Assembly (NCBI GenBank): GCA_965178125.1
Contig: OZ237759.1
Span: forward strand, 124,001-188,000
DNA: 64,000 nucleotides
DNA from: Bilabrum cf. latius
Lineage: Eukaryota
Reading direction: 5' to 3'
The notes under the pieces are model-generated. The model was not told the DNA's origin. It saw only the letters and a program-made list of their open reading frames with translations, and did no database searches. Position 1 is the first letter of the stretch; each line of letters begins with the position of its first letter. Positions 15,801 through 49,468 of this stretch are shown one piece after another. Made by a program: the position numbers and the translations under genes.

Positions 15801-18266
15801 GAGGTCTCGCTGCAAGCGGCACAGCAGGCAAGAGACAAGTCGATTCGCCTGGAGAACGAGGTGAAGGAAGCCAAGGACAAGGCCGCTCGGCTGGCGGGTG
15901 AGCTGTCCGCGGCTCGCTCCGCCATGGAGCAGATCTCGAGCGGGGCAGCTGAGGCGGAGGGAGAGGCGCTGGGTGCTCTAGCACGGGCGGAGGCTCTGGT
16001 GGAGGACGCCAGGGAACAGGAGAAAAAGGCTAGGGAACAAGCAGAGGAGTCGCAGCAGAGTGCATGCGCGGCAGCAGCGGAGGCCAGGGAGCATGCGGAG
16101 GAAGTGGCCTAGCTGAAGCGGGAGCTGGCCGCCACCCGGGCAAGGGTTCTAACGCACAACGAGCAGGCAGCCCGCCAGGTGAACAAGGTCATTGCAGCGT
16201 CCGCCAAGGATGCTTGCAAGGCAATGAGGGCGCGCCGTAGGTTGCGTGCTAAGCTGCATGAGGCCGCAAGGGAGCATGAAGCAGCTCTGCAGCGGGTGTC
16301 CAGCACGGAGGAGCACGCCCGTCAGCTGCGGGCCCGACTGCGGGACTGCGAGGATGACCTTAGCCAGTTCGGTGACAGACTGCGGGAGCGGGGCTCCGAC
16401 GTGGTGCGGGCCACCCTGGCGAAGACAGCTGCTAAGAAGGAGCTGCAGGCCGTTCGGGATGAGCTGGAGGCCGCCACCAAGGAGCTTGAGGGGTGCAAGA
16501 GCGAGTTGCGGGCCAAGCAGGGCATCGTGTCGGACCTGCAGGGCGAGCTTGAGGGGTACAAGCTGCAGCTGAGCGAGGCCCGGGGCACCATCGAGTCCCA
16601 GGACAAGCAGCTGAGCGAGGCCCGGGGCACCATCGAGTCCCAGGACAAGCAGCTGAGCGAGGCCCGGGGCACCATCGAGTCCCAGGACAAGCAGCTGAGC
16701 GAGGCCCGGGGCACCATCGAGTGCCAGGACTAGCAGCTGAGCGAGGCCCGGGGCACCATCGAGTCCCAGGACAAGCAGCTGAGCGAGGCCCGGGGCACCA
16801 TCGAGTGCCAGGACAAGCAGCTGAGCGAGGCCCGGGGCACCATCGAGTGCCAGGACAAGCAGCTGAGCGAGGCCCGGGGCACCATCGAGTCCCAGGACAA
16901 GCAGCTGCAGCAGCTCCGGTCCCAGCTGCAGGTGGCCCAGCACGCCCTGGCAATGGGAAAGCAGGAGGCCCTCAGGGAACAGAAGCAGGCCAGTGCCCGC
17001 GAGAAAGGCATGCACGAGCAGCTGGTCGGGCTTAGAAAAGAGCTTGCCACGCTGCAGGCGAGGGCAGCTACGGTGGGACCCACCTTCGCGAGGCTCGGGG
17101 ACCGGCTTCGTGCCGCTGCCTGCGAGGCTCACAGGGCAGGTGAGAGGGCAAGCGCAGCCCAGTAGGACGCGCGGGAGTCCCGTGAGGCATCCGATAGGAG
17201 CGCCAGGTAGGCCGAGCTGGCCCGTCGGCAGGCGCAAAAGACCTCGAGAGGGTACCAGCGGGCGGCCGCCGCGCTGCGGGAGGCCGTGTCGGCCAGGGAA
17301 CAAGAGGCGCGGGCCTGGCGGGGAGCGGCCCTGGGCATGGCCAAGGAGGTGCGACAGGCCAGACAGGCGGCCGAGCAGAGCCAGCGGGCCGCCCTCGGGG
17401 GCGCGCAGGCGGCGGCATCGGCGCGCACTCGGGTGCAGGGCATGGTGGCTCGTGTGGGGCAGGGGCAAGAGGCTCTGCTCGAGGCGCTGGCGGGGTGCAC
17501 CGCAGGGATGATCAGGGCCAGGGAGGCTGTGGGGGCGGCAAGAGCGGCGGCGGAGAGCTCCAGTCGAGATGCACTGCACGCAGGTGCGGGCGCCAAGTGC
17601 GCAGAGAAGGCAGCGGCGGAGGCCCGGTCAGCGGCGGCGGGGCATGCCAGCGGTGCGGTTGACGCGCTCGCTGCCGCTGGCCGCATAGAGGCCAGATGCA
17701 TTGCGCTGCAGAGCATCGAGGAGACGACGGGGGTCGTCGGGCAGGCAAGCGTTGTACCCGATGGTGAGATTCGGCGGCAGAAGGAGAAAGAGTCGGGCGC
17801 TGTGTCCGTCCGTCTGTTCAAGCTGCAGCGGGAGGCAGCCGAGGCGAAGGAAGCCCTGGCGAGGCAGCGACAGGAGGCGCGAGCCGCGTGTCAGGAGCTG
17901 CAGGCCACGATGGAGAGGGAGGTGATGCGAGCGCAGGAGGAGGGGCGGGCGGCGCTGGAGCAGTCCAACAGGGCGCAGACCGACGTGATGAGGAGGGTCA
18001 ATGCAGAGCTGGGCAGGAGGGCGGCGCTGGTGAGGCAGCTGTCAGCCGCCCTGAAGAAGGCGGGGCTGAAGCCGGGCGCAGTTGCCGCTGTGTGCCCCGG
18101 TGCCGGTGCCGGTGCCGGTGGCAGAGCCAAGGCCAAGCCTGGGGCTCAAAGAGAGACGCATGATGGACTCGGAGCTGCGACGAAGGCAGATTAGGCTAGC
18201 GATGACGGCTTCAGGCCGGCCAAGCTGTCTCGGAGGCACGCGAAGATGGCAGCAAGGATGAAGTGA
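12898..18266 (+). CDS. Kinesin motor protein with a long coiled-coil stalk (possibly kinesin-6-like); intron ~13131-13325
   Basis: VCLRVRP, FSFDRVF, P-loop YGCSNSGKSYT, NSASSRGH, LVDMAGVER and VPFRESILTRLLQ. One frame runs through TAGs at 14319, 16110, 16731, 17163, 17208 and 18192 to TGA. Confidence 0.85.
16566..16901 (+). repeat. 42-bp coding tandem repeat, 8 copies (QLSEARGTIE[S/C]QDK)
   Basis: Near-identical CAGCTGAGCGAGGCCCGGGGCACCATCGAGT(C/G)CCAGGACAAG units; copy 4 ends in TAG instead of AAG. Confidence 0.95.
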
Positions 18267-32290: not shown

Positions 32291-32295
32291 CCATG
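32291..32295 (+). repeat. Left target-site duplication (CCATG)
   Basis: Identical to 49464-49468; this choice gives symmetric 7-G and 7-C element ends. Confidence 0.85.
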
Positions 32296-33356
32296 GGGGG
32301 GGACAACAGGTGGTGGTAGGTACACCAAGCGTTTAGGACGAGGGCTACGCTACGCTCGCCCCTCCTTTAAAGGCATATTTAGCAACTCAAGTGTTTCCCC
32401 TATAAACCTAAATGATTTCACAGGGGGTTCCCCAAGAACCCCTATAGAACCCCTCTATGTACCCATTTTCAGATATAAAATTTACTCCTACGAAGTAGGG
32501 GTAAATTGAAGAATTCTAATATTTAACCCCCTTATAAACTCTAACAGCAAAGACAGAGATGTTTTAGTAAAGTAGGAAAAAATGAAGAAATTAACCAAGT
32601 GTCCAAAATATCTCTGTGTTTGCTGTAGGAACGGAAGGATGAATTCCCAAGAGACCAAGAGACCAACCGAGGATTTCCCCAAGAGAACAAGGTATTTTAT
32701 CAAGAGACCGAGGTATGTTCCCAAGCGACAAACCGATAAACCGACCGATGAACCGACCGATGAACCGACCAAGGATTTCCCAAGGATTTCCCAAGGATTT
32801 CCCAAGGATTTCCCAAGGATTTCCCAAGGATTTCCCAAGCGACTAAATTGTTCTCCGAAGCAACCAAACCGATTACCCAAGAGATGATACATTATAAGGA
32901 AAACGAAAACGTATTTTAAGTCCCTTTGGAAAAGTCCCCCAAGATGCTCGGGCTTTGCCCTCCGCTCTTTTGATATCTTTTTCAAAGATTAAAATTGAGA
33001 GATTTTACAGGTCAATTTTAAGAGACTTAGAAAGAATAAATATATTTTCCAATTAAAATTAAATGTTGTAATTCCTATGATGCCACCATAAAAATTAAAA
33101 GGAAAACGAAAACGTATTTTAAGTCCCTTTCGAAAAGTCCCCAAAAAACTTGTCAATTTTACAGGTCAATTATAAGAGACTTAGAAAAAATAAATTAAGT
33201 TCCCAAGATGCTCGGGCTTTGCCCTCCGCTCTTTTGATATCTTTTTCAAAGATTAAAATTAAATGTTGTAATTCCTATGATGCCACCATAAAAATTAAAA
33301 GGAAAATAAAAAACAAATTATAATTGTTTTCCAATTAAAAACACAAAAATTGATTG
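32296..33356 (+). repeat. Left terminal inverted repeat (~1.06 kb, modular)
   Basis: Starts GGGGGGGACAACAGGTGGTGGTAGG. Matches the reverse complement of the right end to ~32940 except for 11-mer copy number, then contains duplicated modules up to ACACAAAAATTGATTG. Confidence 0.9.
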
Positions 33357-33372
33357 CCTAAAGTGGAAATGT

Positions 33373-33405
33373 CGTACCTTAAGCATAACTTACGTAGTCT
33401 ATAGT
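33373..33405 (+). promoter_or_regulatory. Extended viral upstream motif, copy 1 (CGTACCTTAAG..CGTAGTCTATAGTA)
   Basis: Near-identical to the motifs upstream of the helicase and pPolB start codons. Confidence 0.7.
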
Positions 33406-33417
33406 ACAACCACATAA

Positions 33418-33657
33418 ATGGCAAAATCACAAAAGGAACTCGAGAATTACATCTTGGCGACCAAAGAATGTCTTAAATCAGTCCCGTTTATTACAACACG
33501 AGAAGCATACGATATGGCCAAAAAGTACCTTGAATTTACAAAGACTATTATTTGGATTAATTATGATGATGACGATGACCTGCTTGCTGACTTTGAGGAA
33601 GCTAAAGATTTAAGTCAAATTGTAGTTGAATGGCACGAAAGTACCAAAACCAAATGA
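33418..33657 (+). CDS. Virophage hypothetical protein (79 aa)
   Basis: ATG preceded by the shared upstream motif; ends at TGA. Confidence 0.7.
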   Translation: MAKSQKELENYILATKECLKSVPFITTREAYDMAKKYLEFTKTIIWINYDDDDDLLADFEEAKDLSQIVVEWHESTKTK

Positions 33658-33722
33658 TTTTTTCCCAAGAATTATTTTCCCTACTTTACAAAAGTAAGGA
33701 GAATGATACAACTATATAGCAA

Positions 33723-34778
33723 ATGAGTAGCGCCTTTGAAAGAATATTACAATCCCTAAACATTTATCCCAACAGTCGTATTGTAAATTTAATGAAACGA
33801 CCAAAACGACCCAAAGGAGTAAATCGACCCCACGTAAATGTACCAGAACCTCACCAAGTGGTACAAATGGATTTATTATCATTACCCCACGACAATAATT
33901 ATAAATACGCATTAACTGCTATTGATTTACATACAAAGTAGGCCGATGCTGAACCGCTCAAAACCAAGCGTTAGAACGAAGTATTAAAGGCATCAAAAAA
34001 GATTTTCAATCGTGGTAATGTCCAGAAACCGCAGCACCGTTTGGAAATAGATAATGGAAAAGAATTTAACGCTTTACAAAGATATTTAGAAGAGACCGAT
34101 GTATTTGTACGAAGAAATAAAGCAGGTCGCCACCGACAACAGGCATTAGTGGAAAACCTAAATAAAACGTTGGGAAAAGCCATATTTACCCTATAGAACG
34201 TTAATGAGTTAAATACAGGTAATGAAAGCGTAGAATGGGTGGATATGCTTCCAAACATCATTGAAAACTATAATGAATATCAACTAGAAAAGTATATAGA
34301 AGAACCACCTTTACCCCCAGAACACTTCGACTTTACGTAGTGTAAAGGAGACGCTTGTAATATATTGGAAGAGGGTACAAGAGTTCGTATACCATTAGAA
34401 GAACCCAGAAAGGCTACAAATTTACAGCAAAAATTATCCGGAAATTTTCGTGCTTCAGATTTACGCTATAATCCAGAAATCAAAACGATAACTAAAGTAT
34501 TATTAAGACCGAGACAACCACCCTTATATGTTGTGGATTAGGATGATTTAGTGGCTTATCCAAAAGAGGAATTACAGATTATCGACTTTGATAATGAGGA
34601 CAATAACCGAGATGCTCAGACAATCTTTCTCCCAAAAAAAATAAAATCCGAGAACGAAACAGAATATCAAATAGAATGGAAAGATTTTCCAGAACCAGAA
34701 CATTGGACGTGGGAACCAAAGAATAAAATCCAAGAAATTGCTCCTAATTTAATTTTGGAGTGGGATATAGAAAATTGA
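33723..34778 (+). CDS. Retroviral-type (rve) integrase with C-terminal chromodomain, 351 aa
   Basis: DDE triad in QMDLL / EIDNGKEF / ALVENLNKTL; chromodomain EYQIEWKDFPEPEHWTWEP; 5 in-frame TAGs; ends at TGA. Confidence 0.92.
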
Positions 34779-34790
34779 GATGCCCCGTAT

Positions 34791-34823
34791 CGTACCTTAA
34801 GGATTATTTTCGTATTCTATAGT
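34791..34823 (+). promoter_or_regulatory. Extended viral upstream motif, copy 2
   Basis: CGTACCTTAAGGATTATTTTCGTATTCTATAGTA ends about 11 nt before the helicase ATG. Confidence 0.7.
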
Positions 34824-34835
34824 ACAACAACAAAA

Positions 34836-36497
34836 ATGTCATTCACTCTGCCGACTAAAGCGTATTCGTCAAAAAGCCTTATGGACCTATGTAATGCCGG
34901 AAAACAAGAGGAATGTATTCAATACCTTAAACAATACTTCTACCGCACCCACGAACAAGGTGGCGGGGTGTATTTTCTAATAGCATCTGAATTAAATCGG
35001 AATAACATAAGTGATGACGAACCCCAGAAACCAGTCTGGTAGTTCCTTACGAATAAAAATATTACTGAAAATTACCTGATTGGGGGACACTGTATTTACG
35101 CGATTGTGGGCAACAAAAGAGTAAAGACTTGGTCAGCACGAGACTGGTTCTTAAATGAGAATACCGACGTATTTACGATTGTAAGAAAATTCAATTCACC
35201 TACCGTTGATTACGACAATCAAACAATTAACGTTATGGGTTCACCTATACTTACACGGGAAAACTGTGGAAACATAGAGGATTTAACCGAAGACGCAAAA
35301 GCAGGCGCGACTATGATTTACGAACATATCCAGAAGGTGTGGACTTCAGAAGACAAAGAATAGTGTGATTTTGTGATGAAGTGGTTGGCTCACGTTATTG
35401 TGGGCGGAAAGAAGTTGGGTACAGCACTATATTTGAAATCTCCACAAGGAACTGGTAAATCGATGATTATTACCTTCCTTATGAGAAAACTACTCGGATA
35501 TACCCTCACACTATAGACGCTTACACACAAGATGCTTCAACCCGACGCCTTCAACTCAATTCTGGACGGGAAACTATTAGTCAATTTTAATGAAATTCCA
35601 AAAGCCTCGCCAACTATTTGGGACGCCATGTAGGCAACACTAAGAAATCTTATTACGGAAAAACACTTTTCCTGTAATGAGAAGTTTGTCAAATCCGAAA
35701 GTCGTCCGAATACATTCAATTTAATTATTGATACGAATGATAGTCCAATCAAAATCACCGAGGAAATCCGTAGATATTGTGTTTTGGATGTGAATACATC
35801 TAAGAAAGGAGACAAAGAATACTTTACAACACTAAAACGTTTTACAGAAAATCCAGAAGTGGCTAAGGCATTTTATATGTTATTGGTTGAAATCTATGAT
35901 ACATCACCAGACTTTACAGGACAATTCGCACCAAAATCAAAGAATTTTTACAAAGGAATTCTTGATGGCGCACATCCGGTTTTAAAAATTCTAAAAGAAG
36001 AGTGGCTGGACGAAGGCAGAGATTTTAAAATGACAGTCTTGGAATTCCGCAATTATCTAAAGCAGGAACTGAACGGTAGAGTGAAGAACCTTGGTACACC
36101 TATGATTAAAACACTATTGTCAGAGGTAGGTGTTCATTCAACGATGAACAAATAGAGAAAACAAGAATTTAATGTGAAACACGCAGACTTACTAAAAGGC
36201 TTCCAATCTAAATTTTAGGCACTTCGTCATTCTGCTGAGATGGAAAAAGCAAAATCCGAGGTAGATGTTCTTCGAGAGTAGATTAGAGAACTACAGAAAC
36301 AAGTCGCATAGCAGTAGGAAACGATTGAATAGTTGGAATTAGAAAAGGAGATTACACCGACGGAACAAGTCCATAAGAAAATCCAGAAACAGCTGAGTGT
36401 TGAGAATAGCATCGCTATTCAAAAATGGATAAAAGAGAACCCACCAAAGAACAAAAAAGGAAAACTTTCCAAATTCCTCTGTAAAATTGAGAAGTGA
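34836..36497 (+). CDS. Superfamily 3 (D5-like) helicase, 553 aa
   Basis: Walker A SPQGTGKS, Walker B-like LLVNFNE, motif C IIDTN, IRRY and a coiled-coil tail; about ten in-frame TAGs; ends at TGA. Confidence 0.9.
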
Positions 36498-36504
36498 GTG
36501 AGTT

Positions 36505-36538
36505 CGTACCTTAAGAATAATTATCGTATTCTATAATA
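36505..36538 (+). promoter_or_regulatory. Extended viral upstream motif, copy 3
   Basis: CGTACCTTAAGAATAATTATCGTATTCTATAATA upstream of the pPolB ATG. Confidence 0.7.
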
Positions 36539-36554
36539 TAATAGATACTATAGA

Positions 36555-38396
36555 ATGCCCGAAATCGATTTTACGGAACCCCAAAGAACCAAATTGCGTC
36601 TTAATGGGAAACCAATATGGAGTATGCGATTTGAGAGCGAGGACCTTATCACCGTAAAAAATGTCTTGGAATTTATTCGTGATTACGACGATGGTGGTGA
36701 AAATCCGTTTGATGACTTTAAATTTAAGGTGAATATCAATTACCAAGATACAGGTTGGCGAACACGAAGCACTTGGATTACTACAGATGATTTAGAAAAT
36801 CAAGATAGTTTATGGGCGGGCTACGAAGACGACGATGACGACGAATATAGAAAATTGAATTCTTTTGAACTACTGCTTATTAGAAAGCCAGAACCAGAAG
36901 GCGGTGCTGACGAACATAACGATTGTTTATATAACGCTATAAAACAGGCTTTTCCTTTTTCAGTTGGTCGTAAGGTAAATGTAAAGAGCGCAAAAGGCAA
37001 ATGGAAAACTACTATTAAAAGATTGTCGAAGTCCGACCTCAAAGAACTCTTGAAAATTGGACGTGATGACCCCGTTGATTACAGAAGAATACCAGAGATA
37101 GAAGACGAACTTCAAGTACGCATTCATGTTGTAGGCGACTTTGAATACACATCTGGAAAAACTCATTTTGACCGTCTTCTAACTGTTTCATTAACAAATG
37201 GGCATTACAAGTATGTTCCCCCCATTAGTTAGAAAGAATTATTTACACCGCCGTCTAAAGAACCGTGTACGCTAATTACCCGCTTGTATCAATCCGAGAA
37301 TTCTTATTTACTATTTGATGGAGACCGTGAGTATCAATCAGAAGGCATTACATCAGTTTCCAAGGATAAATTCATCTTTGAAGTCAAGTCCAAGGAAGAA
37401 CTAAGAACAAAACACGAAGAACGGATGAAAAATGTAAGGGCATTAGCGAAGGAGACGGGTGGATATATGGATTTATCACGATTTATGTTTAGAACATCCC
37501 TATTTGTAAAGTCGTATTTCAGTAAGTTTTCCAAACTTTACCCTGCCGACCCGATTGACCAAGTTGAAGCACTATGGATTTCTAAAGCCTCGGGTGGTGG
37601 ATTGAATTGGGCAAACAAGAATACTACATTAAAAAACGCATACCAGTACGATATTAACTCATTTTATCCAAGTATTATGAAGGGTACATTTACATTTCCG
37701 GTTAGAAGGGGTAAGTTCGTAAAATTTGAAGTACCTTCAAGTGGTTTCTATCCGTACGGCATTTTTAGGGTACATATTGAAAATATCAATTCTAAATTGG
37801 TACAAAAAAGAAAAAACAATTATTATACCCAATATGACATTAACCGAGCGATTGAGACGGGCGCTTAGGTGTCTCTGATTGAAGACGGTGAAGCCAACGC
37901 TTTACTTTACGATGAGACAACAAGGGTGAAGGCAAATGGACTGTTCAAAACGATGATTGAGCGATTGTACGGTTATAAAAAATAGGGATTGAAGTGTGCG
38001 AAGGAGATACTAAATAATATTTGGGGTTCTCTATGTTAGAAAAACACAATCACAAAAACACTCCGAGATGGTGATTGTATGAATTTTAGACAATTAAAGA
38101 ACGCGTATCCTAAAGCATCTGGACGACTTGTATCGGGTATACTATATGACGAAGAGTACGATTACAAAACAGCCTACGCAAGAATGGGCCCCTTTCTGAC
38201 TGGACTTGGACGAAGTAAATTGTCCAAAATGATTGAGCCATATCTTGAAAACATTCACTATGTCAACACGGATGGTTTCATTAGTGAGAAAGAATTACCT
38301 CTAAAGTTATCAACGAACCTTGGGGGTATGAAGTTGGAGCAATCAGGTGAATGTCAAATTATTCACAGTAAGAAGAAAATTTTTAGAAAAGATTGA
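36555..38396 (+). CDS. Protein-primed family B DNA polymerase, 613 aa
   Basis: Motif A YDINSFYPS, motif B KEILNNIWG and motif C YVNTDG in one frame through TAGs at 37230, 37866, 37983 and 38037; ends at TGA. Confidence 0.9.
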
Positions 38397-38397
38397 A

Positions 38398-38670
38398 TTA
38401 AATAGTCTGCTTTTCCTTTAGTCTCTAAATTTCCTATCGCAAACTATCAAGTTCATCCATAATATTAATTTGTTCCCTTTTTGTGTCTTCCTCTTTTTGA
38501 AGCCAATCAAGGTGTTTTTTGGTTCTACAATGATGTGATTTATTGTACTTCTTATATACACCACCACAGGAACACTTTATCTATTCTCCAAGTTTTTCCT
38601 TGTTTTTCCGGTAGTATTCACGGGCATACAGCTTATCCTGTTCTTTTCTTTCTGAATGACTGAGTGTCAT
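38398..38670 (-). CDS. Zinc-ribbon/C2H2 protein of the type common in virophages, 90 aa
   Basis: YAREYYRKNKEK..IKCSCGGVYKKYNKSHHCRTKKH; 3 TAGs; ends at TAA. Confidence 0.75.
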
Positions 38671-38711
38671 TTTTGTATTCTATAGTATTATACTATAGAG
38701 TTAGATTTAAG

Positions 38712-39353
38712 TCATACATTCTACCAAGCAATTTTTAGAGCATCACTTTTCCCATATCCTCTACCTCTTAACTACTGAGCGATTTTCATTGCTAGTTTTG
38801 CTTTTGGGTTTTTCCGACGGCGCCTCCCTTTTCCAGTTTTTTGTGGTTTAAAACTCTACTTCGCTCTTTCGTTCGAGCCCCAATCAGGCACTTCACCACC
38901 CATTCGCATTACTCTAGCCTATCTCGATGATAATAGTTCTTTCTAACTATTTCCCTTCTCTCTAGCATCAAAAAATTCACGCATAGTATCTCTCCGTTCT
39001 GACGCATATTTTCTATGAATTGCCTAATTAAAATCATCAAGTGTTGTGTCGTGTTGCTCGTGTAGTGATGGTGATAAGAATTTTAGTATACCCACGTCAT
39101 AATCACCATCACTATCTTTGTCAATTCCTAGCGTATCAAATTCTTGTTCGGTCTTTTCGGCGAGCATTTCCATCATTTCCCTTTCCTAAGGGTTTACATA
39201 TACACGATTAGCGTACTTTTCCCCTATACTCTAGTGCTTCCTCAATCCTTTCAAAATTGCTAGTGCTTGTCTAGCGTCTTTCCCCAAACTCTGATGTGGC
39301 TAACTAGCCAGTAAATGTAGTTGTTCTTCGGTATAATCATCAACACCCGCCAT
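38712..39353 (-). CDS. Virophage hypothetical protein (acidic N-terminus, basic C-terminus; possible core protein), 213 aa
   Basis: ATG after TATAGTA; the inspected segments are open when TAG is read through; TGA stop in frame. Confidence 0.65.
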
Positions 39354-39373
39354 TTACTATACACAATCATAAA

Positions 39374-40630
39374 TTAATCATACGCAAACATTTTCCAAGC
39401 CTACTTAAGTGCTGTCTTCTTGGATATTCCTTTTCCTCTTAAAATGGACGCCATTTTCATAACTCTTGAACGTTTTGTTTCACACTGACATTGACCTCCA
39501 AATATTTCCAGATACATACCCGATACTGGGTCATTCGTATGCGAATGGATTTCTTTCATAATTGGTCTTCCAACTGTTTTAGTTGCTAAATCCCAACCTT
39601 CCTTAAAATCTTGTCCAAAATCCCTTTCTGTGTTCTACTTATGCTTTTCCTAATTTTTTCTTAAAGCGTTTCTTACATCTTCCGGTAAATCATCTAAACC
39701 TCTCCCGAACCATTTGGAAAAATACCCAGCCACATCAGTAGCAGCATTAGCCACTCTCTTAGTAAATCCCGATACGTTCTTAGCAATACTCTCTACATCC
39801 TACATAATAAATTGGTTTAAGGGTGGTGTCAAAAACCCATTTGTGCGTAGAACATCCTAAATGAACTTTTGACAATTCAACGAGAAAGCACGATACTAAT
39901 AAAAATTGTATTCTCCTATTTTCTGTAAAGTGGTTTCATATAATTCCCTTACTGTTTTCTAAGGTTTTCCATTAATATTTACTTCCATAGTTTGTGTTTT
40001 CTTGTTGGTGGAAAATCTTGAGGACAAATTAACCCTCTCATTCTTCTCAAGATAAATCTTTTTTCCACCTCCAAGGTTCAACTCTAAGGCTAAGTGAAAA
40101 AAATCATTATATCCGTGTTTATTTTTTAACTTTTTCATTTTTCCAAGGGTAATCCAGTTAAGCAACCGATTAATCGCGCCACTAATGGGGGTTCTAATTA
40201 CTTTCATAGCTATAATTGTTCTATCCCCGTATTGCTGTAGTGTTCTCTGGACTTCGTTTGAATTCCCATACACTACTCCACCCTTAAGCTGTTGCGCCAG
40301 CTAACTGCGCCGAGAGGGGGTGCTTCGCAAACCATCTTTTAAATACTAATGAAGTGTGTTGGATTGTGTGGATTTCTTCTAGGATTTCTTTTTTGGTTTT
40401 CCTTTTGTTCCCACACCATCTTTAAGCTGTTGCGCCAGCTAACTGCGCCGAGAGGGGGTGCTTCGCACACCATCTTCAAACTTAATTGCTTTTTCAAGGG
40501 CTTCTTTAGAATAAGGATGTTCACTTTTCCATGTCCTTGTTGTTTTACTCTTTGGTTCTTTGACACTAATGTACGTCTTAACAAAACCAGAATTCATTTT
40601 TCCGCCACTAAGTGTATAAAAACTATCCAT
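39374..40630 (-). CDS. Virophage protein with a permuted papain-like (PPPDE/LRAT-like) domain, 418 aa
   Basis: FFHLAL..YLEKN..YRAFSLNCQKFI (His before NC); ORF-track fragments 40439-40630 and 39959-40273 share one frame; ends at TAA. Confidence 0.65.
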
Positions 40631-40655
40631 TTAGTATAGGCTTGTATTAAAAAAC

Positions 40656-41273
40656 TCATAGACGACTTCCAAGACCGAAGGTTTTCCGGACGAATTCCTC
40701 CAGTTGCTAAAAGGATGAATAGACACAGTACTAACTCTAATGTAATCCAGCGATTAAATTCGTTCTTGAGCGTTCTACAGACAATAAGTCCCCCGATTTT
40801 TTCCCTTCACGGATTTCCTCAAAAAGACTGTGAGAAGGCACACACACAAAAATTGAACTTTCCTTAAATAAATCTTTCGCTAATTCCAACGAACCAACCA
40901 TAACAATTAAACGCCTGGATTTCTTTGTGAGCCAATCCGCTTTAATTTTTTCATACACTAATCTTGACTAAGAGTAATAAAAGAGACGGTGGGTGCTTTC
41001 ATCACCATCAATTAGCATTTTCTCCATTTTCTATTTTTCCTACCCTGAAATCTAACCATTTACGCATTCATCTAAGTCAATGACCAAAGTGTCTTTATCA
41101 ACACTTTCTATAGAGCGACACAAAGTAGTTTTCCCAGAGCCTTTTGGAACAACCACGCAGGATTTCTGTTTCTAAGTTCCGTCTTTCGTCCACCAAGAAT
41201 ATAGACACCGACTACCAGAATACATTAAAGGAGCCAAAGTCCCAGCAACCATTACAGCAGATGATACTGACAT
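40656..41273 (-). CDS. Small P-loop NTPase/kinase-like protein, 205 aa
   Basis: VVVPKGSGKTTL followed by LVIDLD; hydrophobic N-terminus; ends at TGA. Confidence 0.7.
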
Positions 41274-41328
41274 TGTTTTGATATACTATATACCAAGACA
41301 AATATTTATTGGTTTACCCTTTTCATAC

Positions 41329-43095
41329 TCAAGCTTGGAGCATAGCGAGTAATTGATTGCGAGAGAGAGATTTACCACCTGTTAATCCAGAACCCAACTT
41401 GGCACCTGTTAAGCCCTTGCCTTTCTTGGTAGTTTTTCGGGGTTTCCTTTGGCGTCCCATACCAGCCATTTCACCCACCATTTTAGCGGTGTCAAATACC
41501 TACTTACCATCCTTTAATACTTTTTTGAGATTGCCTTTCTTTACCCAATCAGCGGTTTTGTGTGCGAACTTTTTTAAGGCGTGTCTAATCTTTTTCCCAA
41601 GACCGCGACCGTGTAGTCCTGATAATTGACTTTCATATACTACGGGTAGTTTAGAGGCGGAAAGAACATCTGCCCGTGAGATGACACCCTGCTAATACTC
41701 AATCTTAGAACCATCAATCACATTCATTACTCCTTCGTACAATCCCACAACCACACACTACACATTTTGGTAATCTACAACATCATTATTCTTCACTCGT
41801 AGGGTGATAGACAATTGGTTAGAGCCGTTGCTTCCATTTGTCTAATCTACATCTAGGCTCAAATCCTTGGCGGGGTCGATGGAGAGAATTGCGCCTGATA
41901 GCACCCTATCCCCGAATTTACGCATAGCCCATTCCGCGTATTGCTATTCAAGTCCATTGCTTCTGGATAAGTCCCATAGCTACTGAGGTGAAGCATCTGC
42001 GAGTAATCCACTTTGGTTATTCATCTCAATAGATATTCCCTCAATTCCAAGGAATGTGTTTCCCTAATCTACTGAGACGCTGGTAGGTGAGCGACGGGCA
42101 AACACAAATAGACGAGATGGAACTGAATTGCTAAGTTTAATATTGTTGTTCGTAAGAGTTGCTGTTGTTCCTGCGCTGATTGTTGCACCATAGCTTTGAG
42201 TATATGAAGTCATTTCAAAAATATCATAGGATACCTGTTTTGGAAGGACAAACCCTGTTTTAGGGGTAATCTATTCAAGGTATAAATAGGGGTTCTGGAC
42301 ATCTACCGACTAAACGGTAGCAGTTAAGTCCTATTGTGGAATACGAGACCACACGGTTCTACTCAGTTGCGACCAATTGATATCCAAGGAAAGAGTTTCT
42401 AAACCGAAAATGGCTGGTTGTTCCTATTTACTTTCGTAATGGAAAGGTGGGCAAAGAACCGCCTCAGTACATTCAAAGACAAGAACACGATTTTGCGTTT
42501 GACCTGCGGGCACTGGAGTGTTATCCATTTGAACCAAGTTATAAAATCCACTTCCTCTTGCGGGTTGGTCCTAAAGCACGTCCTCATACGAAGCAAGAGC
42601 GTTATTTGTAGCCTAACTCATCATCGCGTATGAAGGCACATTGTCGCGTCTATACACACTATCAAGGCAATTCACACGATGAACATCATCATCTAAACAA
42701 TGGGACACTACGTCCATTATTTCCGCGTTATTCTAAGTAAAGCGAATGTTATTGATACCAACTGTCTGTGTTGCAATGGAGCGATTAAGTGGATATGAGC
42801 GTGGAGCATCGTAATCTGGTGTAAATGGTACGAGAGCACCTGCGGTTTGATTATTCACGGAAAAGGTAATGGAAAAACGGCAAGACACGTATGCGCGGCG
42901 GCATAAACCTACACCTGAAGGCATACTAATATTCCAATTCACACCTGAATTATAATTACCGGCTGAACCAGATGGAGCGTATCTGCGAAACGTTCGGTTC
43001 TCATAACCTTCTTGAACTTCATAAGGCTTTGGTTGTACGTCTAATGTTGCGGGAGATACTTTGACTGGCTGAAGGGCAAATGTATTCAATGACAT
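41329..43095 (-). CDS. Virophage major capsid protein (double jelly-roll), 588 aa
   Basis: APRSYPLNRSIATQTVGINN, NNALASY..PARG, TEAVLCPPF, VPSRLFVFARR and ISIEMNNQSGLL..LWDLSRSNG resemble virophage MCP motifs; Gly/Lys-rich C-terminal tail; ends at TGA. Confidence 0.9.
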
Positions 43096-43200
43096 TTTTG
43101 TTTTCCTTGTATATTATATACAACGAATAAAATTCTATCACTCAGTTCTTTAGAAAAGAACGCAAACTCGTTTCTTCATAAAAGTAATACAAAACTAATT

Positions 43201-44310
43201 TCACTTCCGTTTCTTAAATAAAAACTTCACACTCACACTTCCGTGGCGTAAATAAAGAGGTCTTAGATTTGAATAATTGTCTTTCCAATATAGATTAAAC
43301 TAAATCCTATCTACTGAATGTGTATCTAAAAAATCAATTTCGTGGAGAATATGGGGCTGGTATTGAAGAACCTACTAATTAACTGTTTCAGTATCATCTA
43401 ATACACAATCCATATCCACTAATAAACTCTCGGTCCCTGAACCTGAATTTTGAACTGTATTAGTGGATTGTCCATAGGCGGATTTCTAGGATATTGCCTC
43501 ACTCCTCACTGGAAGACTTGAAGATGTGAAAACTATTCCGCGAAAAATCTAAAACTACACTAAACTCCCTCGTTCCTAGGTCATCATTAATCTGTAGTCT
43601 CCCGTTGGGTTTCCCTCGAAGTATGCCTAAGGTTCATATTTTCCAACAGAAGAGCCATCATCAAATAAAACATTCGTTCCTAAGGATTTGAATAGAATGC
43701 TTGCGTATAAGTCGTCATCTTGGATATCCATTCGTTCCATAGGAAAACCCGTCATCAGTTCGTTAAGGGCTTCGTTCAACACTAATTTAAATTTCTGTCC
43801 TGAGTTTTCCTCGTCGTAATCGGGATTTGCTACTAAACTGAACTTTCCATCTTTAAAGAGTAAAACCGGAACTGATGTAATATCCGCTGATAAAGCATTC
43901 TATATGGTTTCGTTGAATAAATCAACAAAATGCTACACGGAATACATATAATAATAAGGAACAAACTACATAGGATTGGAAAATGATGGTTGGTTTTCCC
44001 CTGTTAACTAGGGTCTCCACTGAATGCTTGAGGTCCACAAACTTACTCCGTCTTCATCTGTAATGCTTATTCTATACACCGTTTGATTAGGATTTGAAGA
44101 TGGATTTTTCACTTTATCGGTTTCTATGTGTGGAACCCATAAAGGTATTGAATTGGTGCTTATGGAAAACCGGAATACTGACATCGTATAATCACCAACA
44201 TCCTTATCTAATAATGGCTACTTGCGGGTTTCGCTATAGGTCGCTGGTTGGAAAGTATCTTCGTTATTTCGTATGTTTGCGGTAATGTAAAATCGGTCTG
44301 GAGAACTCAT
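43201..44310 (-). CDS. Virophage minor capsid protein (penton), 369 aa
   Basis: N-terminal FYITANI..ATYSETRK(TAG)PLL..DYTMSVFRFSI..IPLW and C-terminal SVKFLFKKRK; directly upstream of the MCP gene. Confidence 0.85.
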
Positions 44311-44366
44311 TTTACTATAGACGTTTATAATTATGGGGTGGGTTTGATTACTTTTCTAAAGTATAA

Positions 44367-44858
44367 TTAAGATGGTGTAATAAGTGAACCTGACACTAAG
44401 GATTTCCAACTAGATGTAGAAGAACTGCCAATCGCCACATAGACATCGTTGTCGCTTCCATTATACACTAAAGCGCCCTTGAACTTTCGCTCTGCTGACG
44501 TATTAATAGGGGTAGAAGCGTCAGCCAATGTAGCTCCAGCAACCTCACTCAGCCCAACAACACCCTCTTGAGAAGTCTTGAATGAACCAACTAGTGAAAT
44601 ATCGCATCTTTCTCCTTCTTCGCTCATACTGAACTGACAACCAGCAGACGCTCCGTTTTTTCCAAACCGTAGAACAGTTTCACCCCACTCCATATAAGGC
44701 TCTCCGTCTTTGAATTCAATACTTGGATTGCCTATGACTGCTCCCGTAGAGTTAGTAATTGCGGACACTTTAATTGCGTCGCTACTCACAACATTACACG
44801 TAATAGTTTGAGACATAAGGTCTAGACTGTTCTTAGATAGAAGATTTGAAACTGACAT
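44367..44858 (-). CDS. Putative fibre/spike-like virion protein, 163 aa
   Basis: Uninterrupted ORF next to the penton gene; N-terminal MSVSNLLSKNSLDL and Ser/Gly-rich beta-like composition. Function is inferred. Confidence 0.5.
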   Translation of the reverse strand: MSVSNLLSKNSLDLMSQTITCNVVSSDAIKVSAITNSTGAVIGNPSIEFKDGEPYMEWGETVLRFGKNGASAGCQFSMSEEGERCDISLVGSFKTSQEGVVGLSEVAGATLADASTPINTSAERKFKGALVYNGSDNDVYVAIGSSSTSSWKSLVSGSLITPS

Positions 44859-44923
44859 TTTATAGTATATCCACAGAAATAATTTTTATCAGGTTGCCAA
44901 AAGATGTAAATAAGAGGTTTTGG

Positions 44924-46105
44924 TCAATCTTTTCCTAAAAGATGTAATAGTTCCATAGCAACCTAATGATGAATATCTTTATCGGCTCCTTTTACTTTCT
45001 TGGCTACATTCATTGCTGTATCATAGATAATCCTTTTTCCACCTCGTAATCCTTTCCCCTTTTTTGGTTTTCCACTTTCTTCTACAGTCATTGCGCGTGA
45101 TGGTGGGTCTTCTAAATCAGGCTACTAAATTCCATAGGGCGGACTAAACCCCGTAAATCGCTACACAGGTCTAGTAGCACGTTTTCCAATTCCCTGCTCA
45201 ATTTCTATCCTACTCGGCATATCATAGTACTCACCAGTTTCTGGGTCCCATGCCCCCGGAGTGCTTCCTTGCGGTAGTGGTCTTTCATTGCTCGCTGCGG
45301 CTAATATGGCATCTAAGTCTTTTGATGTTTTTGACGCATTACTACTTGAACCCTCTTGAAAATGCTAAAACATATTTGTCTGCCCCTGTGATGTTCTTTG
45401 TGAGAAATTCTTTCCCTATTCTAAATCCCACGCTATTCGTTGTTTTTCAGTTAAGGGTCTGTCTTGTTGTATTCTTTCTCTGGCTCTTTCCAATAACTAT
45501 TTATACGCACCCGAAGACCTTTTTGGAAGCTGTACTTGTGTTGGAGCGGAAAACGTGTTTCTTCTTGTTGTTCGAGCAGGTGTTTGTAAAGATGTTGGCT
45601 ACTAATCAATTCCCAACATTCCCTACGGTATTCGTTGTCCGGATGCCTCCTATATAACTTTCCCTAATTCTAAGAGTTGTTTTCTGTCTTCAGCTGGAAC
45701 TCTCTGCAGTCCTTCGTAGCCTTTCCTTTGAAATCTCTCAATATTTACGTATTGACGGGCTAGTTGTTGCTTCATTTGTGGAGACATATTGATATTACCA
45801 ACAAAATCCTTCAATGCTTTCACTGCTGGACTTACATTTTTACCCTCAATAATACCTTTCATTATACCAGATATTGACTTAGATATGATTTCCTCGTTGC
45901 TTTGGTCTGCCTATTTTCTCTACGCTGGAGTTCCATACCTTCCACTTTCTTTTAATCGTTCAATTTTTGCCCTTTTCCTTATAAAATCACTATATTCTGT
46001 TTCTAAATCTACGTCGTCCCTTGCCTGTAAATCTAACATTTTAGCATTGTCCAGTTCCCTTTCTAGGGCTTGCTGAATAAGAGCATTCACTTTAGCAGTT
46101 TTCAT
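44924..46105 (-). CDS. Virophage hypothetical protein (low complexity, candidate core protein), 393 aa
   Basis: Manually translated; open throughout when TAG is read through; contains GKGLRGGKR; ends at TGA. Confidence 0.7.
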
Positions 46106-46168
46106 TTACTATAAGCTTTTATAAAAAGCTTGACCAAAAAATAAAAAAAAGTGTTTGTGTATAGTATA

Positions 46169-46408
46169 ATGGATATTGATAAGTGGATTATATAGAGAAC
46201 CAAACAACTCGCGCTATAGAAAGAACAAGACGCTTTAAATAGAGTTAAAAACAAACATATTAAAGTTGGAAAAGGCCGTAGTAAGCCTAAGCGGAAAGTG
46301 AGCGCCAAAATGAAACGCCGCAATAAACTTGTAAAAATGGTGATGTAGTAGACTGGTATGAGTTTACCTCAAGCAAGTCGGTATATACGAGAATAGAATA
46401 TTATTTAA
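46169..46408 (+). CDS. Small basic protein, candidate DNA-condensing core protein, 79 aa
   Basis: GKGRSKPKRKVSAKMKRRNKLVKMVM(TAG)(TAG)TGMSLPQASRYIRE; 5 TAGs; TATAGTA upstream; ends at TAA; absent from the ORF track. Confidence 0.75.
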
Positions 46409-46437
46409 AGAAACTTTTATAACAAGTTTGACCAAAA

Positions 46438-47340
46438 TTACATAAGGTAAGCCTACTTTTCTCCTAATAAATACCTCGGGTAATTCCTGTGGACACATAC
46501 CCACCTAGAAGGCATTTTTAAGACTTTAGAGATTTCTTGTTTCTCAAGTCCTATATAATTTTTTAGTAAATACCTTAGAGAATGTGCGGAAGAACACTAA
46601 GGGAATATAACGAACTTATGACTTTCCGCAAGAATAATTCGGGTACTTTTATAGTTGGTAGATAAATGACTTGTGATTAATACAGAAGTATTCGAATGTC
46701 TTCCAACCTACAATATTTCATCCTGTAAATGATTGAGGGCTTCCCTTAACTTCTTATCTTTGATTGTATCAATATCATCCAAGATTACTAAGGCGTCCCT
46801 TAATTCCTAATGAATATCAATCGGGTTCTCCACCAGTTCCTCATTTAAAATAATCCTTTTCAGTCCTTTCACTTCATCTAAGACTTTATCCTACTATACT
46901 CGTGAAAATAAAATAATTCTCCTGTTTGGAAACATTCTGTGATAATTCTTAGCATATTTGGAAACCCAAGTAGACTTCCCAGCACCTGATGGTGCGGTGA
47001 TATAAATGACCTCTCTTCCTTTTGGATTTGGTAATGATTGGAATTCACCCTATTTTAATGTAATCTCTTTATGTTTCTTTTCCTATGCTTTTTCATACAA
47101 GTATTTGATGTCTTCGTCTAGGGGTTCGACCTGTTTGATTAAGTGTCGTGCTAATAAATCCATTTTCCTCTGCGGAAATCGTTTCCCTGTAAGTGATGAT
47201 ACTTGAAAATCCTAAAATGACATACTATCATCTCCAAATTGGTTGTCTGTGTTTTCCGCCGTGTATAAAATACGTTTTCCGTGAGTGTCATATGCGATGG
47301 GTGTTGATTTTGTAGTTTCCTTCCAAGAAAAATGAGCCAT
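46438..47340 (-). CDS. FtsK/HerA (A32-like) genome packaging ATPase, 300 aa
   Basis: Walker A YITAPSGAGKST, Walker B LVILDD and EIL(TAG)VGRH..LITSH; ends at TAA. Confidence 0.92.
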
Positions 47341-47529
47341 TTTAGTGTATTTACTATATGTTTTTATTTTTTCTAAAGTGTTTTGTCTTTTTGTTGAAAA
47401 CTTATTTTGAATGATTGTCTTTTATGCTATCCACAAATTCCAAAACGGATTTTGTAGAAATACTTCTACGCTTAAATAGTGGTTAAGAGAATTCATCTCC
47501 CCCAATATATGTTTCTATAATAAATATAT

Positions 47530-48066
47530 ATGGATTATGCTCTTAGCGATAGTGATATTCGTGTTCTCCTCCAAACTCCACCAAATATTAAGGGGTTTCT
47601 TCCTACGTCGGTAAACATCGTTCCATATACAGAATTAGGATAGTACAATAGTATTGATGGATTATTTAGTCGTTGTAATTGTTGTATCATTCTATACCAA
47701 GAAGAAATAAATTCTGGACACTGGGTGTGCTTATTTAAGCGTAATAAAACAATATACTTCTTTGACAGTTATGGAATTCGTCCTGATAGGCAATAGCACA
47801 CAATGAGTGAAAGCGTGCGGAAACGTTTTTATGAAGACCCTGAGTTAATATATTTAATGTATCATTCTCCGTATAAGATTGACTATAACCCATATTAGTT
47901 TTAGGCGGATGGAATGGATATAGCAACCTGCGGGAGACATTGTATAGTTCGTCTTTGGAATAGGGGAAAAAACGCTGATTAGTATAAAAAGTGGGTGGAT
48001 AAGGTTTGTAAGAAACATACATTAAATCCTGATGAATTAGTGTATTTATTGACGTGTCATTTATGA
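47530..48066 (+). CDS. Adenain/Ulp1-like cysteine maturation protease, 178 aa
   Basis: GHWVC (His), FFDSYG (Asp) and F(TAG)ADGMDIATCGRHC (Gln, Cys); 5 TAGs; ends at TGA; absent from the ORF track. Confidence 0.92.
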
Positions 48067-48345
48067 ACTCCAAAGGTAAAAATGTGAGAAGAACTTTGGG
48101 GTTCTTGGTTTTACTTCGATACCGTGTCGTTTGAAGTATCTAAATTGGCGGTCCGTATCTAAATGATTTAAATGGCTGTAATACCCTATTCTATCGTAAA
48201 ATTGCTAATACCGCCTATCACCAAACGATGTAATATATTCATCATTTTCGTCAAAAACATCATACTTCTTATTCTTGCGTCTTGAGGGTGCTTTAAATAG
48301 AAAATTCTCAACAACCTTTTCAAAATCGTAGGTATGTAGCTTCAT
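48061..48345 (-). CDS. Conserved small virophage/polinton protein (Tlr6F/DUF5754-like), 94 aa
   Basis: RKNKKYDV..SFGDRRY..YFKRH..TPKFFSHFYLW; its stop overlaps the protease 3' end by 6 nt (TTATGA). Confidence 0.6.
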
Positions 48346-48376
48346 AAGTACTTTATAGTATAGTCTTCTACTTATA

Positions 48377-48490
48377 TCAAAGCCCGAGCTTCTTGTATTC
48401 CTTTAGTTTTTCGTGTAATTTTTTCCAAATACGTGGATTAATTTGCTTGACAATATGCTCTATCATCAACTCCTTTAAAAATGGGTTCAT
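48377..48490 (-). CDS. Very small virophage ORF (37 aa)
   Basis: ATG directly after CTATAGTAA; MNPFLKELMIEHIVKQINPRIWKKLHEKLKEYKKLGL. Confidence 0.4.
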   Translation of the reverse strand: MNPFLKELMIEHIVKQINPRIWKKLHEKLKEYKKLGL

Positions 48491-48638
48491 TTACTATAGT
48501 GATATAGAATGGTCTTAATTATCATCTCTTGGGAAATCCAATCTTTGAAAAAGATATCAAAAGAGCGGAGGGCAAAGCCCGAGCATCTTGGAAAATTAAT
48601 TTTAATATTTCTTTGTATCCTATATTGTCAAAATTTTT

Positions 48639-49463
48639 CAATCAATTTTTGTGTTTTTAATTGGAAAACAATTATAATTTGTTTTTTATTTTCCTTTTAA
48701 TTTTTATGGTGGCATCATAGGAATTACAACATTTAATTTTAATCTTTGAAAAAGATATCAAAAGAGCGGAGGGCAAAGCCCGAGCATCTTGGGAACTTAA
48801 TTTATTTTTTCTAAGTCTCTTATAATTGACCTGTAAAATCTCTCAATTTTTGGGGGACTTTTCCAAAGGGACTTAAAATACGTTTTCGTTTTCCTTATAA
48901 TGTATCATCTCTTGGGTAATCGGTTTGGTTGCTTCGGAGAACAATTTAGTCGCTTGGGAAATCCTTGGGAAATCCTTGGGAAATCCTTGGTCGGTTCATC
49001 GGTCGGTTCATCGGTCGGTTTATCGGTTTGTCGCTTGGGAACATACCTCGGTCTCTTGATAAAATACCTTGTTCTCTTGGGGAAATCCTCGGTTGGTCTC
49101 TTGGTCTCTTGGGAATTCATCCTTCCGTTCCTACAGCAAACACAGAGATATTTTGGACACTTGGTTAATTTCTTCATTTTTTCCTACTTTACTAAAACAT
49201 CTCTGTCTTTGCTGTTAGAGTTTATAAGGGGGTTAAATATTAGAATTCTTCAATTTACCCCTACTTCGTAGGAGTAAATTTTATATCTGAAAATGGGTAC
49301 ATAGAGGGGTTCTATAGGGGTTCTTGGGGAACCCCCTGTGAAATCATTTAGGTTTATAGGGGAAACACTTGAGTTGCTAAATATGCCTTTAAAGGAGGGG
49401 CGAGCGTAGCGTAGCCCTCGTCCTAAACGCTTGGTGTACCTACCACCACCTGTTGTCCCCCCC
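48639..49463 (-). repeat. Right terminal inverted repeat (~0.83 kb; an extra module copy lies at ~48539-48590)
   Basis: Reverse complement of the left end; terminates CCTACCACCACCTGTTGTCCCCCCC. Confidence 0.9.
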
Positions 49464-49468
49464 CCATG
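49464..49468 (+). repeat. Right target-site duplication (CCATG)
   Basis: Matches 32291-32295. Confidence 0.85.

Follow-up and report, generated by a model that had tools for sequence, protein, structure and literature searches.

An integrated Sputnik-type virophage that appears to write glutamine as TAG, including the conserved glutamine of its protease

The genes of a virophage-like element integrated in eukaryotic DNA most probably use a code of the NCBI table 15 type, in which TAG specifies glutamine whereas translation stops at TAA and TGA, and the host in all likelihood shares the reading of TAG as a sense codon; we estimate the probability of this reading at about 0.88. A compact demonstration is provided by the cysteine protease of the element, in which an invariant residue of the putative active site is written in three ways, TAG, CAA and CAG, among relatives. 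The element was analysed within a 64-kb stretch of DNA, hereafter called the window.

A virophage-like element in GC-rich eukaryotic DNA

The GC profile of the window delimits a 17.2-kb virophage-like island at 32295-49464, which has a GC content of 37% and is flanked by eukaryotic DNA with 63% GC. The end sequences show that CCATG is present on both sides of the island (32291-32295 and 49464-49468). The pair is possibly a 5-bp target-site duplication, in which case the element proper spans 32296-49463. The two ends are inverted repeats, the arms of which (32295-32806 and 48953-49464) are 100% complementary over 512 nt. Additional inverted arms extend to 33356 and 48540, so that the repeat is approximately 1 kb long. 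Because the inverted ends are identical over 512 nt, the insertion is probably recent. The element and its repeats are positioned as follows:

32295..49464, unstranded: integrated virophage-like element (GC profile, inverted repeats, end sequences and contig break-offs)
32295..33356, unstranded: left terminal inverted repeat, composite, ~1 kb (inverted-repeat search)
48540..49464, unstranded: right terminal inverted repeat (inverted-repeat search)

Six public runs, which belong to two studies, have contigs that contain the element in many pieces and with variant letters. The contigs exit the element at 32294/32296 and at 49463 into unlike flanking sequence. The differing flanks, together with the broken and variant contigs, fit the presence of several copies at different sites. 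The region 47526-48055, which covers most of the protease gene, is represented in contigs of three public runs with zero differing letters, although one of these runs may be the source of the window itself.

When TAG is read as a residue, the island contains 16 ORFs comprising 4717 codons. The ORFs with assigned functions, and those described further below, are:

33630..34778, + strand: integrase with rve core and C-terminal chromodomain, 382 aa, 6 TAG (Pfam PF00665, E 1.7e-9; PF00385, E 6.7e-6)
34836..36497, + strand: primase-helicase-like protein (DUF5906 / VapE-like), 553 aa, 10 TAG (PF19263, E 3.3e-15; homologues in metagenome loci L004 and L007)
36555..38396, + strand: putative protein-primed family B DNA polymerase (pPolB), 613 aa, 4 TAG (PF03175, E 1.3e-5; 61% identical to its homologue in L004)
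38398..41273, - strand: four ORFs without assigned function, 90, 213, 418 and 205 aa, with 3, 9, 11 and 8 TAG, respectively (homologues in metagenome relatives for all four)
41329..43095, - strand: major capsid protein (MCP) of the Sputnik V20 type, 588 aa, 14 TAG (PF21915, E 1.9e-22; PF22031, E 2.2e-27)
43201..44310, - strand: penton / minor capsid protein of the Sputnik V18/19 type, 369 aa, 13 TAG (PF21507, E 9.9e-11)
44367-44858, - strand: orf163, no TAG, without homologue in the metagenome relatives
44924-46105, - strand: orf393, 13 TAG (ORF list and codon count)
46169-46408, + strand: orf79b, 5 TAG (ORF list and codon count)
46438..47340, - strand: packaging ATPase (P-loop), 300 aa, 9 TAG (2971 library proteins at E<=0.001)
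47530..48066, + strand: cysteine protease, 178 aa, 5 TAG (residues 38, 89, 123, 125 and 151), stop TGA (26-member alignment)

The product of 41329-43095 is a double jelly-roll MCP of the virophage type, as indicated by PF21915 and PF22031, and the penton, packaging ATPase and cysteine protease are all encoded beside it. Conserved columns of the ATPase are G121, K122, D188, D189, R214 and H225, among them those of the P-loop and the DD pair. The polymerase matches PF03175 with 24.7 bits, slightly below the cut-off of 25.8. Features of an integrating element occur together, namely the rve integrase, the terminal inverted repeats and CCATG on both sides. Judged from its sequence, the element is probably a virophage with a capsid module of the Sputnik type, an integrase of the rve-chromo type and a putative pPolB, which was recently integrated and exists in multiple copies.

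A short AT-rich motif of the TATAGT type precedes nine of the 16 ORFs. This shared motif is the sole lead towards a dependence on a giant virus. As a virophage, the element would be expected to depend on a helper giant virus.

The conserved glutamine of the protease

Translation of 47530-48066 (+) under table 11 reads KIDYNPY-stop-F-stop-ADGMDIATCGRHC, i.e. Y-TAG-F-TAG-ADGMDIATCGRHC. This is exactly the motif given in the first-pass annotation of this DNA. The two stops are TAG 47896-47898 at residue 123 and TAG 47902-47904 at residue 125. The window product was aligned with 25 homologues from a database search (28-50% identical by BLASTP), which resulted in a family alignment of 26 members (A1). 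Column 125 is occupied by Gln in all 25 database homologues. The invariant columns of A1 are G63, H64, Y81, Q125, C134, G135 and D168, and Q125 is the only invariant Gln. In the metagenome loci that carry relatives of the element, the codon at column 125 is CAA (L007), CAG (L003, L004 and L002) or TAG (L008). The earlier claim that TAG encodes a conserved protease glutamine located shortly before the cysteine is thus borne out by the alignment, in which Gln125 precedes the invariant Cys134 by nine residues. The codons of the putative active site are:

47719-47721, + strand: His64, invariant in A1
47764-47766, + strand: Asp79, replaced by Asn in 4/26 rows of A1 and Asp in the others
47902..47904, + strand: TAG codon of Gln125, putative oxyanion-hole residue, Gln in 25/25 homologues
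47929..47931, + strand: Cys134, invariant in A1, putative catalytic Cys

Cys138 varies across A1, and the catalytic cysteine is probably Cys134 rather than Cys138. In clan CE enzymes, a conserved Gln helps to form the oxyanion hole; it precedes the Cys by 7 residues in adenain and by 6 in Ulp1. The order of residues in A1 is His, Asp/Asn, Gln and Cys (H-D-Q-C), as in clan CE, and the Cys is followed by Gly, as in adenain (C5) and Ulp1/SENP (C48). The spacing of nine residues between Gln and Cys is wider than the 6-7 of these enzymes.

Sequence comparisons point to the same clan, but the links are weak. The protease from the window has no Pfam match at E<=0.01. When the A1 profile was compared to the PDB, only the SdeA DUB (E 0.43) and adenain (E 0.77-1) were matched, both of which belong to clan CE. 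GHW and FDSYG-like motifs align with both proteins. In the alignment with adenain, which covers its residues 39-132, GHW pairs with HW, FFDSYG with FEPFG, and Q...CG with Q...CG. The profile Gln pairs with the adenain Gln located 7 residues before the Cys in alignment one, and with that 10 residues before it in alignment two. The Pfam cut-off of Peptidase_C48 is passed by one of the 26 members of A1 (22.7 versus 20.7 bits), and two more members score below it. Neighbours in the ESM Atlas are cysteine proteases of Preplasmiviricota and include clusters annotated as Peptidase_C5/C48 with a score of 0.95. Matches of the single protease sequence to WD40 repeat proteins in the PDB were rejected as spurious, since they were produced by summed sub-threshold matches to one 25-residue stretch. 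The first-pass annotation had assigned the protease to the adenain/Ulp1 family. The order of the residues agrees with this assignment, whereas the sequence links (profile E-values of 0.4-1 and one C48 match among 26 members) make it a suggestion: the protease may belong to clan CE as an adenain/Ulp1-like enzyme, and Gln125 may act at its oxyanion hole.

TAG as a sense codon of the element and its relatives

In-frame TAG occurs 111 times across the 16 ORFs and is present in 14 of them. The Gln-type codons of the element are TAG (111), CAA (115) and CAG (46), so that TAG accounts for 41% (111/272). Ten ORFs terminate with TGA and six with TAA; the ORFs were delimited by these two codons, so the zero count of in-frame TAA and TGA follows from the definition, and a TAG terminator would go unseen. 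The first TAG of the capsid gene is at codon 121. Given the presence of TAG in 14 of the 16 ORFs and at codon 121 of the capsid gene, the element would not be expressed in a cell using the standard code.

A metagenome scan identified eight loci, L002-L009, that carry relatives of the element with MCPs 50-62% identical to that in the window. The loci share with the element the helicase, polymerase, orf205, orf418, penton, ATPase and protease. Their MCP stretches contain 2-8 in-frame TAGs each, and 176 TAGs are distributed over 12,587 codons in 41 distinct ORFs. Residue 211 of the ATPase is TAG in all four clade sequences. Scanning IMG/VR with the MCP alone as the query found no locus. The MCP alignment, used in the same way, detected a single distant locus, L001 (25% identity), in which in-frame TAG is absent from the matched MCP stretch. 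Because the environmental relatives share the trait, the recoding is probably old and lineage-wide, rather than a property of one decaying copy.

The exchange of codons between the element and its relatives was tabulated. Opposite TAG codons of the window, 305 cells of the relatives contain CAA 35 times and CAG 34 times (69 together), TAG 40 times, Lys 34 times and Glu 32 times. Opposite CAA and CAG codons of the window, 353 cells contain Gln 94 times, TAG 31 times, Glu 41 times and Lys 23 times. The share of Gln or TAG is 36% opposite TAG and 35% opposite CAA/CAG, in cells that are non-independent because L002, L003 and L004 are near-identical, and the runner-up residues K, E, T, S and R are the same in both sets. 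The equal shares indicate that TAG behaves as a synonym of CAA and CAG.

A decaying endogenous copy could also accumulate TAGs, as nonsense mutations arising for example by C-to-T deamination of methylated CAG, which would favour Gln codons. Such decay would suit an element that is integrated and far more AT-rich than its host, in which CAG is the rarest Gln codon and some TAGs stand opposite conserved Tyr or Glu, one base change from TAG. However, the two alternative frames of the same DNA contain 106-159 TAA and 88-188 TGA each, whereas the 16 ORFs, the longest of which comprises 613 codons, remain uninterrupted and match virophage protein families end to end (Pfam). The relatives, which are on separate contigs, carry TAG at other positions, TAG exchanges with CAA as well as with CAG, and the TAG at residue 211 of the ATPase has been kept. 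Among the 38 variant places listed for the copies in public runs, beyond which 200 further places exist, 28 differences are synonymous and 10 non-synonymous, and none of the 38 affects a TAG codon. The inverted ends are identical, which points to recent insertion, and housekeeping genes of the host carry TAG as well. Deamination of CAG to TAG does not account for the exchange between TAG and CAA, the conserved TAG positions and the TAGs in host genes. We consider decay to be already largely refuted and assign it next to no probability. The viral TAGs had been proposed in the first-pass annotation to be functional glutamine codons rather than products of nonsense decay. This proposal holds, based on column 125 of the protease, the spectrum of partners that TAG shares with CAA and CAG, and the log-odds described below.

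Glutamine as the most probable residue specified by TAG

The identity of the encoded residue was evaluated in columns of homologue alignments; two entries, P0027 and P0028, could already be translations made with TAG as Gln. MCP residue 384 (TAG) is Gln in 13/13 homologues, and residue 372 (TAG) is Gln in the four closest of the 13 and Asp in the other nine. Log-odds were calculated from homologues with less than 45% identity only (23 protease, 9 MCP and 146 ATPase sequences). Summed over 27 TAG columns, they are +5.0 for Gln, -7.3 for Glu, -16.2 for Asp and -18.6 for Lys. The same test over 30 CAA/CAG columns also ranks Gln first. In the penton, columns 126 and 245, in which the window has TAG, contain Gln or TAG in 7/8.

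Individual TAG columns are not uniform. Two motifs had been cited in the first-pass annotation as further conserved sites of TAG. The ATPase motif EIL-TAG-VGRH exists, with the TAG (residue 211, codon 46708-46710) two residues before the near-invariant G213-R214, but among 146 distant homologues the residue in this column is Glu 96 times and Gln 25 times, so that Gln is not singled out there. Likewise, ETRK-TAG-PLL of the penton (residue 31, codon 44218-44220) lies in a motif conserved as E[TV]R.xP, but column 31 itself varies (T, K, F, E, R, E, E, Q). At MCP residue 175 (TAG), 8/8 distant homologues have Tyr and all five relatives have TAT. At residue 446 (TAG), 9/9 distant homologues have Glu, and the five relatives that align at this site all have GAA. 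At residue 275 (TAG), 9/9 distant homologues have Phe and closer relatives have ATG. When TAG is read as Gln, the differences at MCP 175 and 446 are ordinary substitutions within reach of the code, as TAT and GAG are one base from TAG.

These columns could be taken to mean that TAG specifies another residue: Glu in the first place, as in codes with UAR as Glu, and then Lys, Tyr or Leu. ATPase column 211 and MCP column 446 would agree with Glu, several TAG columns of the ATPase are mostly acidic, Glu is second in the likelihood sum, and a TAG in the host ProRS gene stands opposite Glu. On the other hand, TAG occupies the invariant Gln columns 125 of the protease and 384 of the MCP, relatives use CAA/CAG 69 times opposite TAG as compared to 32 times for GAA/GAG, and Gln leads Glu by approximately 12 bits. 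The acidic and basic runners-up are also the same in CAA/CAG columns. A residue other than glutamine is highly improbable, and we retain the reading of TAG as Gln.

The host reads TAG as sense

The host was examined within the 64-kb window, where its DNA has 63% GC and is intron-poor. Halocafeteria seosinensis was discarded as a candidate host, since its genome is reported to have 47% GC and a variant code is not mentioned in the available part of the preprint (10.64898/2026.07.28.741278). When TAG is read as sense, frames of the host are up to 1677 and 1420 aa long, and the domains found in host frames include kinesin, histidine-kinase, Alg9, aminotransferase, pseudouridine synthase and ProRS. 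The host ProRS homologue aligns to a solved eukaryotic ProRS from residue 37 to the last (E 1e-191), contains one internal TAG, which is opposite Glu, and terminates at TAA or TGA straight after the conserved C-terminal Tyr. In the homologue of REI1/ZNF622, a TAG is opposite Ala of the human protein or Gln of the yeast protein, and in that of kynurenine aminotransferase (KAT) a TAG is opposite Phe. Homology of ProRS, REI1 and KAT continues downstream of the internal TAG. The sequences indicate that the host reads TAG as sense, while the columns of the three proteins (E, A/Q and F) leave the amino acid undefined. In 14 stop-to-stop frames of the host, there are 49 TAG, 436 CAG and 70 CAA codons, so that TAG makes up at most approximately 9% (49/555), as compared to 41% in the element.

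The difference in TAG usage would be expected if the recoding belonged to the virus, as in code-15 phages, with a host of standard code and a suppressor tRNA provided by the virophage or a giant virus during infection. Variant codes have indeed been proposed for some giant-virus genomes in the available part of a 2026 catalogue (PMC13524828). Nevertheless, the host genes for ProRS, REI1 and KAT have internal TAGs beyond which conservation extends as far as the normal C-terminus, TAG-sense frames with kinesin and histidine-kinase domains extend over more than a thousand residues, and tRNA genes are absent from the 64-kb window and from the eight metagenome loci. A code private to the virus is extremely unlikely, and a code shared by host and virophage remains the preferred reading. 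Since neither the window nor the eight loci contain a tRNA gene, the decoder of TAG would be encoded at another place in the host genome or by a helper virus. Because host genes run through TAG and the window is without a tRNA gene, the virophage presumably depends on the recoded translation of the host.

Alternatively, TAG may be ambiguous, specifying Gln inside genes but ending translation at certain sites, as is the case in context-dependent stop/sense codes. ORFs delimited by TAA and TGA would hide any TAG stop, and the sample of the host is 64 kb. However, no ORF of the element requires a TAG stop. In the ATPase gene, a TAG precedes the terminal TAA by four codons, and the residues beyond this TAG align with the C-termini of homologues. 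The ProRS gene, too, uses TAA or TGA directly after the conserved Tyr. We regard ambiguity as very unlikely, and the code with TAG as Gln and with TAA and TGA as stops is used in the following.

Proposed expression of the protease and its implications

Based on the above, a mechanism for the expression of the protease can be proposed. Cytoplasmic ribosomes would translate virophage mRNAs using the TAG-decoding tRNA of the cell. The TAG at 47902-47904 would be read as Gln125 of the maturation protease. Gln125, together with His64, Asp79 and Cys134, may form the H-D-Q-C arrangement typical of clan CE, with the Gln contributing to the oxyanion hole.

We speculate, tentatively and as a possibility to which we assign rather less than an even chance, that the system is recoded at three levels: a GC-rich, intron-poor host with reassignment of UAG only (to Gln), an environmental virophage clade that evolved in this code and writes approximately 40% of its glutamines as TAG, as compared to less than 10% in the host, and a helper giant virus that also operates under UAG as Gln. 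If this is true, the code forms a barrier that confines the community of virophages and giant viruses to one host lineage. A virophage clade locked to UAG as Gln would mark a host lineage with the rare UAG-only reassignment, and predicts giant viruses with the same code. The system lends itself to testing, in nature, whether a variant code limits the host range of viruses.

In-frame "stops" of an endogenous virus can be a matter of code and not of decay. Premature stops in elements of this kind are discussed mainly as assembly artefacts in the available part of Bellas et al. 2023 (PMC10120064). Gene callers and virus-detection pipelines that use the standard code would score the element and its relatives as pseudogenised or fragmentary.

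Comparison with known systems

The element is similar to the EMALEs of Cafeteria burkhardae and to mavirus. It is an approximately 17-kb low-GC element in a high-GC protist, with long terminal inverted repeats, an rve integrase, a putative pPolB, a helicase, a module of MCP, penton, ATPase and protease, multiple copies, and an AT-rich motif before most genes. EMALEs and mavirus are described as using the standard code, whereas the element described here has 111 TAG codons as Gln.

Code-15 phages use another code than the bacteria they infect, and they often carry suppressor tRNAs of their own. As described in the available part of the source, these phages have TAG reassigned to Gln (genetic code 15), and their structural genes are rich in in-frame TAG read as Gln, similar to those of the element (PMC9523058). 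In the present case, by contrast, the host itself appears to read TAG as sense, and the element is without a tRNA.

The UAG-only nuclear codes described in 2017 are reportedly those of one rhizarian and one fornicate, whereas the present host is a eukaryote with 63% GC and few introns. The accessible text of Panek et al. 2017 (PMC5304391) describes nuclear codes that reassign UAG alone, in which, as here, the meaning of UAG differs from that of UAA, and UAA and UGA remain stops. A literature search for stramenopiles or flagellates in which UAG alone is reassigned found no description of this case. A search combining virophages with genetic-code terms found no virophage with TAG reassigned, which does not prove that none has been described.

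A virus that shares the variant code of its host is a known phenomenon. In the part of Bellas et al. 2023 that was available (PMC10120064), endogenous polinton-like viruses found in Streblomastix strix follow the host table with TAA and TAG as Gln (code 6), and the sharing of the code is taken as a sign of a long virus-host association. These viruses resemble the element in being integrated DNA viruses of the polinton/virophage supergroup that use the stop-to-Gln reassignment of the host. They differ in that both TAA and TAG are Gln, the capsid is of the metamonad polinton-like type, and only MCP matches are described in that text. In the element, TAG alone is reassigned, the capsid is of the Sputnik type, the whole element is intact, and free-standing metagenomic relatives share the code. 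What appears to be new is therefore a clade of Sputnik-type virophages with TAG-only reassignment, which is represented by an integrated and intact member as well as by relatives from the environment.

Upstream motifs and TAG usage of the element modules

In the 60 nucleotides upstream of the 16 ORFs of the integrated virophage-like element, a TATAGT(A)-type motif precedes most of the genes, located 2–25 nucleotides 5' of the ATG. TATAGT itself is present in nine of the 16 regions, and TATAATA and TATACTA are variants of the motif. The motif may be a promoter common to the element ORFs, possibly recognized by a helper giant virus. The upstream regions of orf79a, the helicase, and the polymerase have in common a longer block of about 35 nucleotides (TCGTACCTTAAG...CGTA.TCTATA), which is not found upstream of the morphogenesis genes. 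The block may constitute a second promoter class, serving the replication module.

Upstream regions of element ORFs (60 nucleotides each)
47470-47529; 43096-43155 (minus strand): examples of the regions scanned
33358-33417; 34776-34835; 36495-36554: regions with the block of about 35 nucleotides

TAG shares of the modules were computed from the codon counts of individual ORFs. TAG accounts for 20 of the 74 glutamine codons (27%) in the integrase, helicase, and polymerase genes (33630-38396), and for 41 of 86 (48%) in those of the major capsid protein (MCP), penton, ATPase, and protease (41329-48066).

Terminal repeats

A 47-nucleotide stretch, within 33204-33252 and 48743-48791, is missing from some copies of the element in public sequencing runs. 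The two sites occupy mirror-image positions in the inverted ends of the element, and the absence is a length variation inside the terminal repeats. The related metagenome locus L007 contains internal inverted repeats (1459-1906 and 8579-8812) of 60–180 nucleotides, which are 71–90% complementary and about 7 kb apart.

Host kinesin-like gene

13233-18266, plus strand: host kinesin-like gene, 1677 codons

The gene appears to be a single unbroken frame, and introns seem to be scarce in the host genes of the window. The kinesin-like gene encodes a tandem 14-residue repeat (LSEARGTIESQDKQ), one unit of which has TAG at the place occupied by lysine in the other units.

Individual genes of the element

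34640-34778: integrase C-terminal chromodomain (PF00385, E 6.7e-6)
44367-44858, minus strand: orf163, no TAG codons
48061-48345, minus strand: orf94, Pfam DUF5754 (E 3e-6; 27.6 bits against a cut-off of 27.4)

Because the integrase bears the C-terminal chromodomain PF00385, its sequence suggests that integration is targeted to chromatin. orf163 lacks a Pfam match, none of the eight related metagenome loci carries a homologue of it, and the GC content around it is locally higher (46% at 44400-44699); the gene may have been gained recently. orf94, which shares 67% identity with an ORF of L007, overlaps the protease stop on the opposite strand by six nucleotides.
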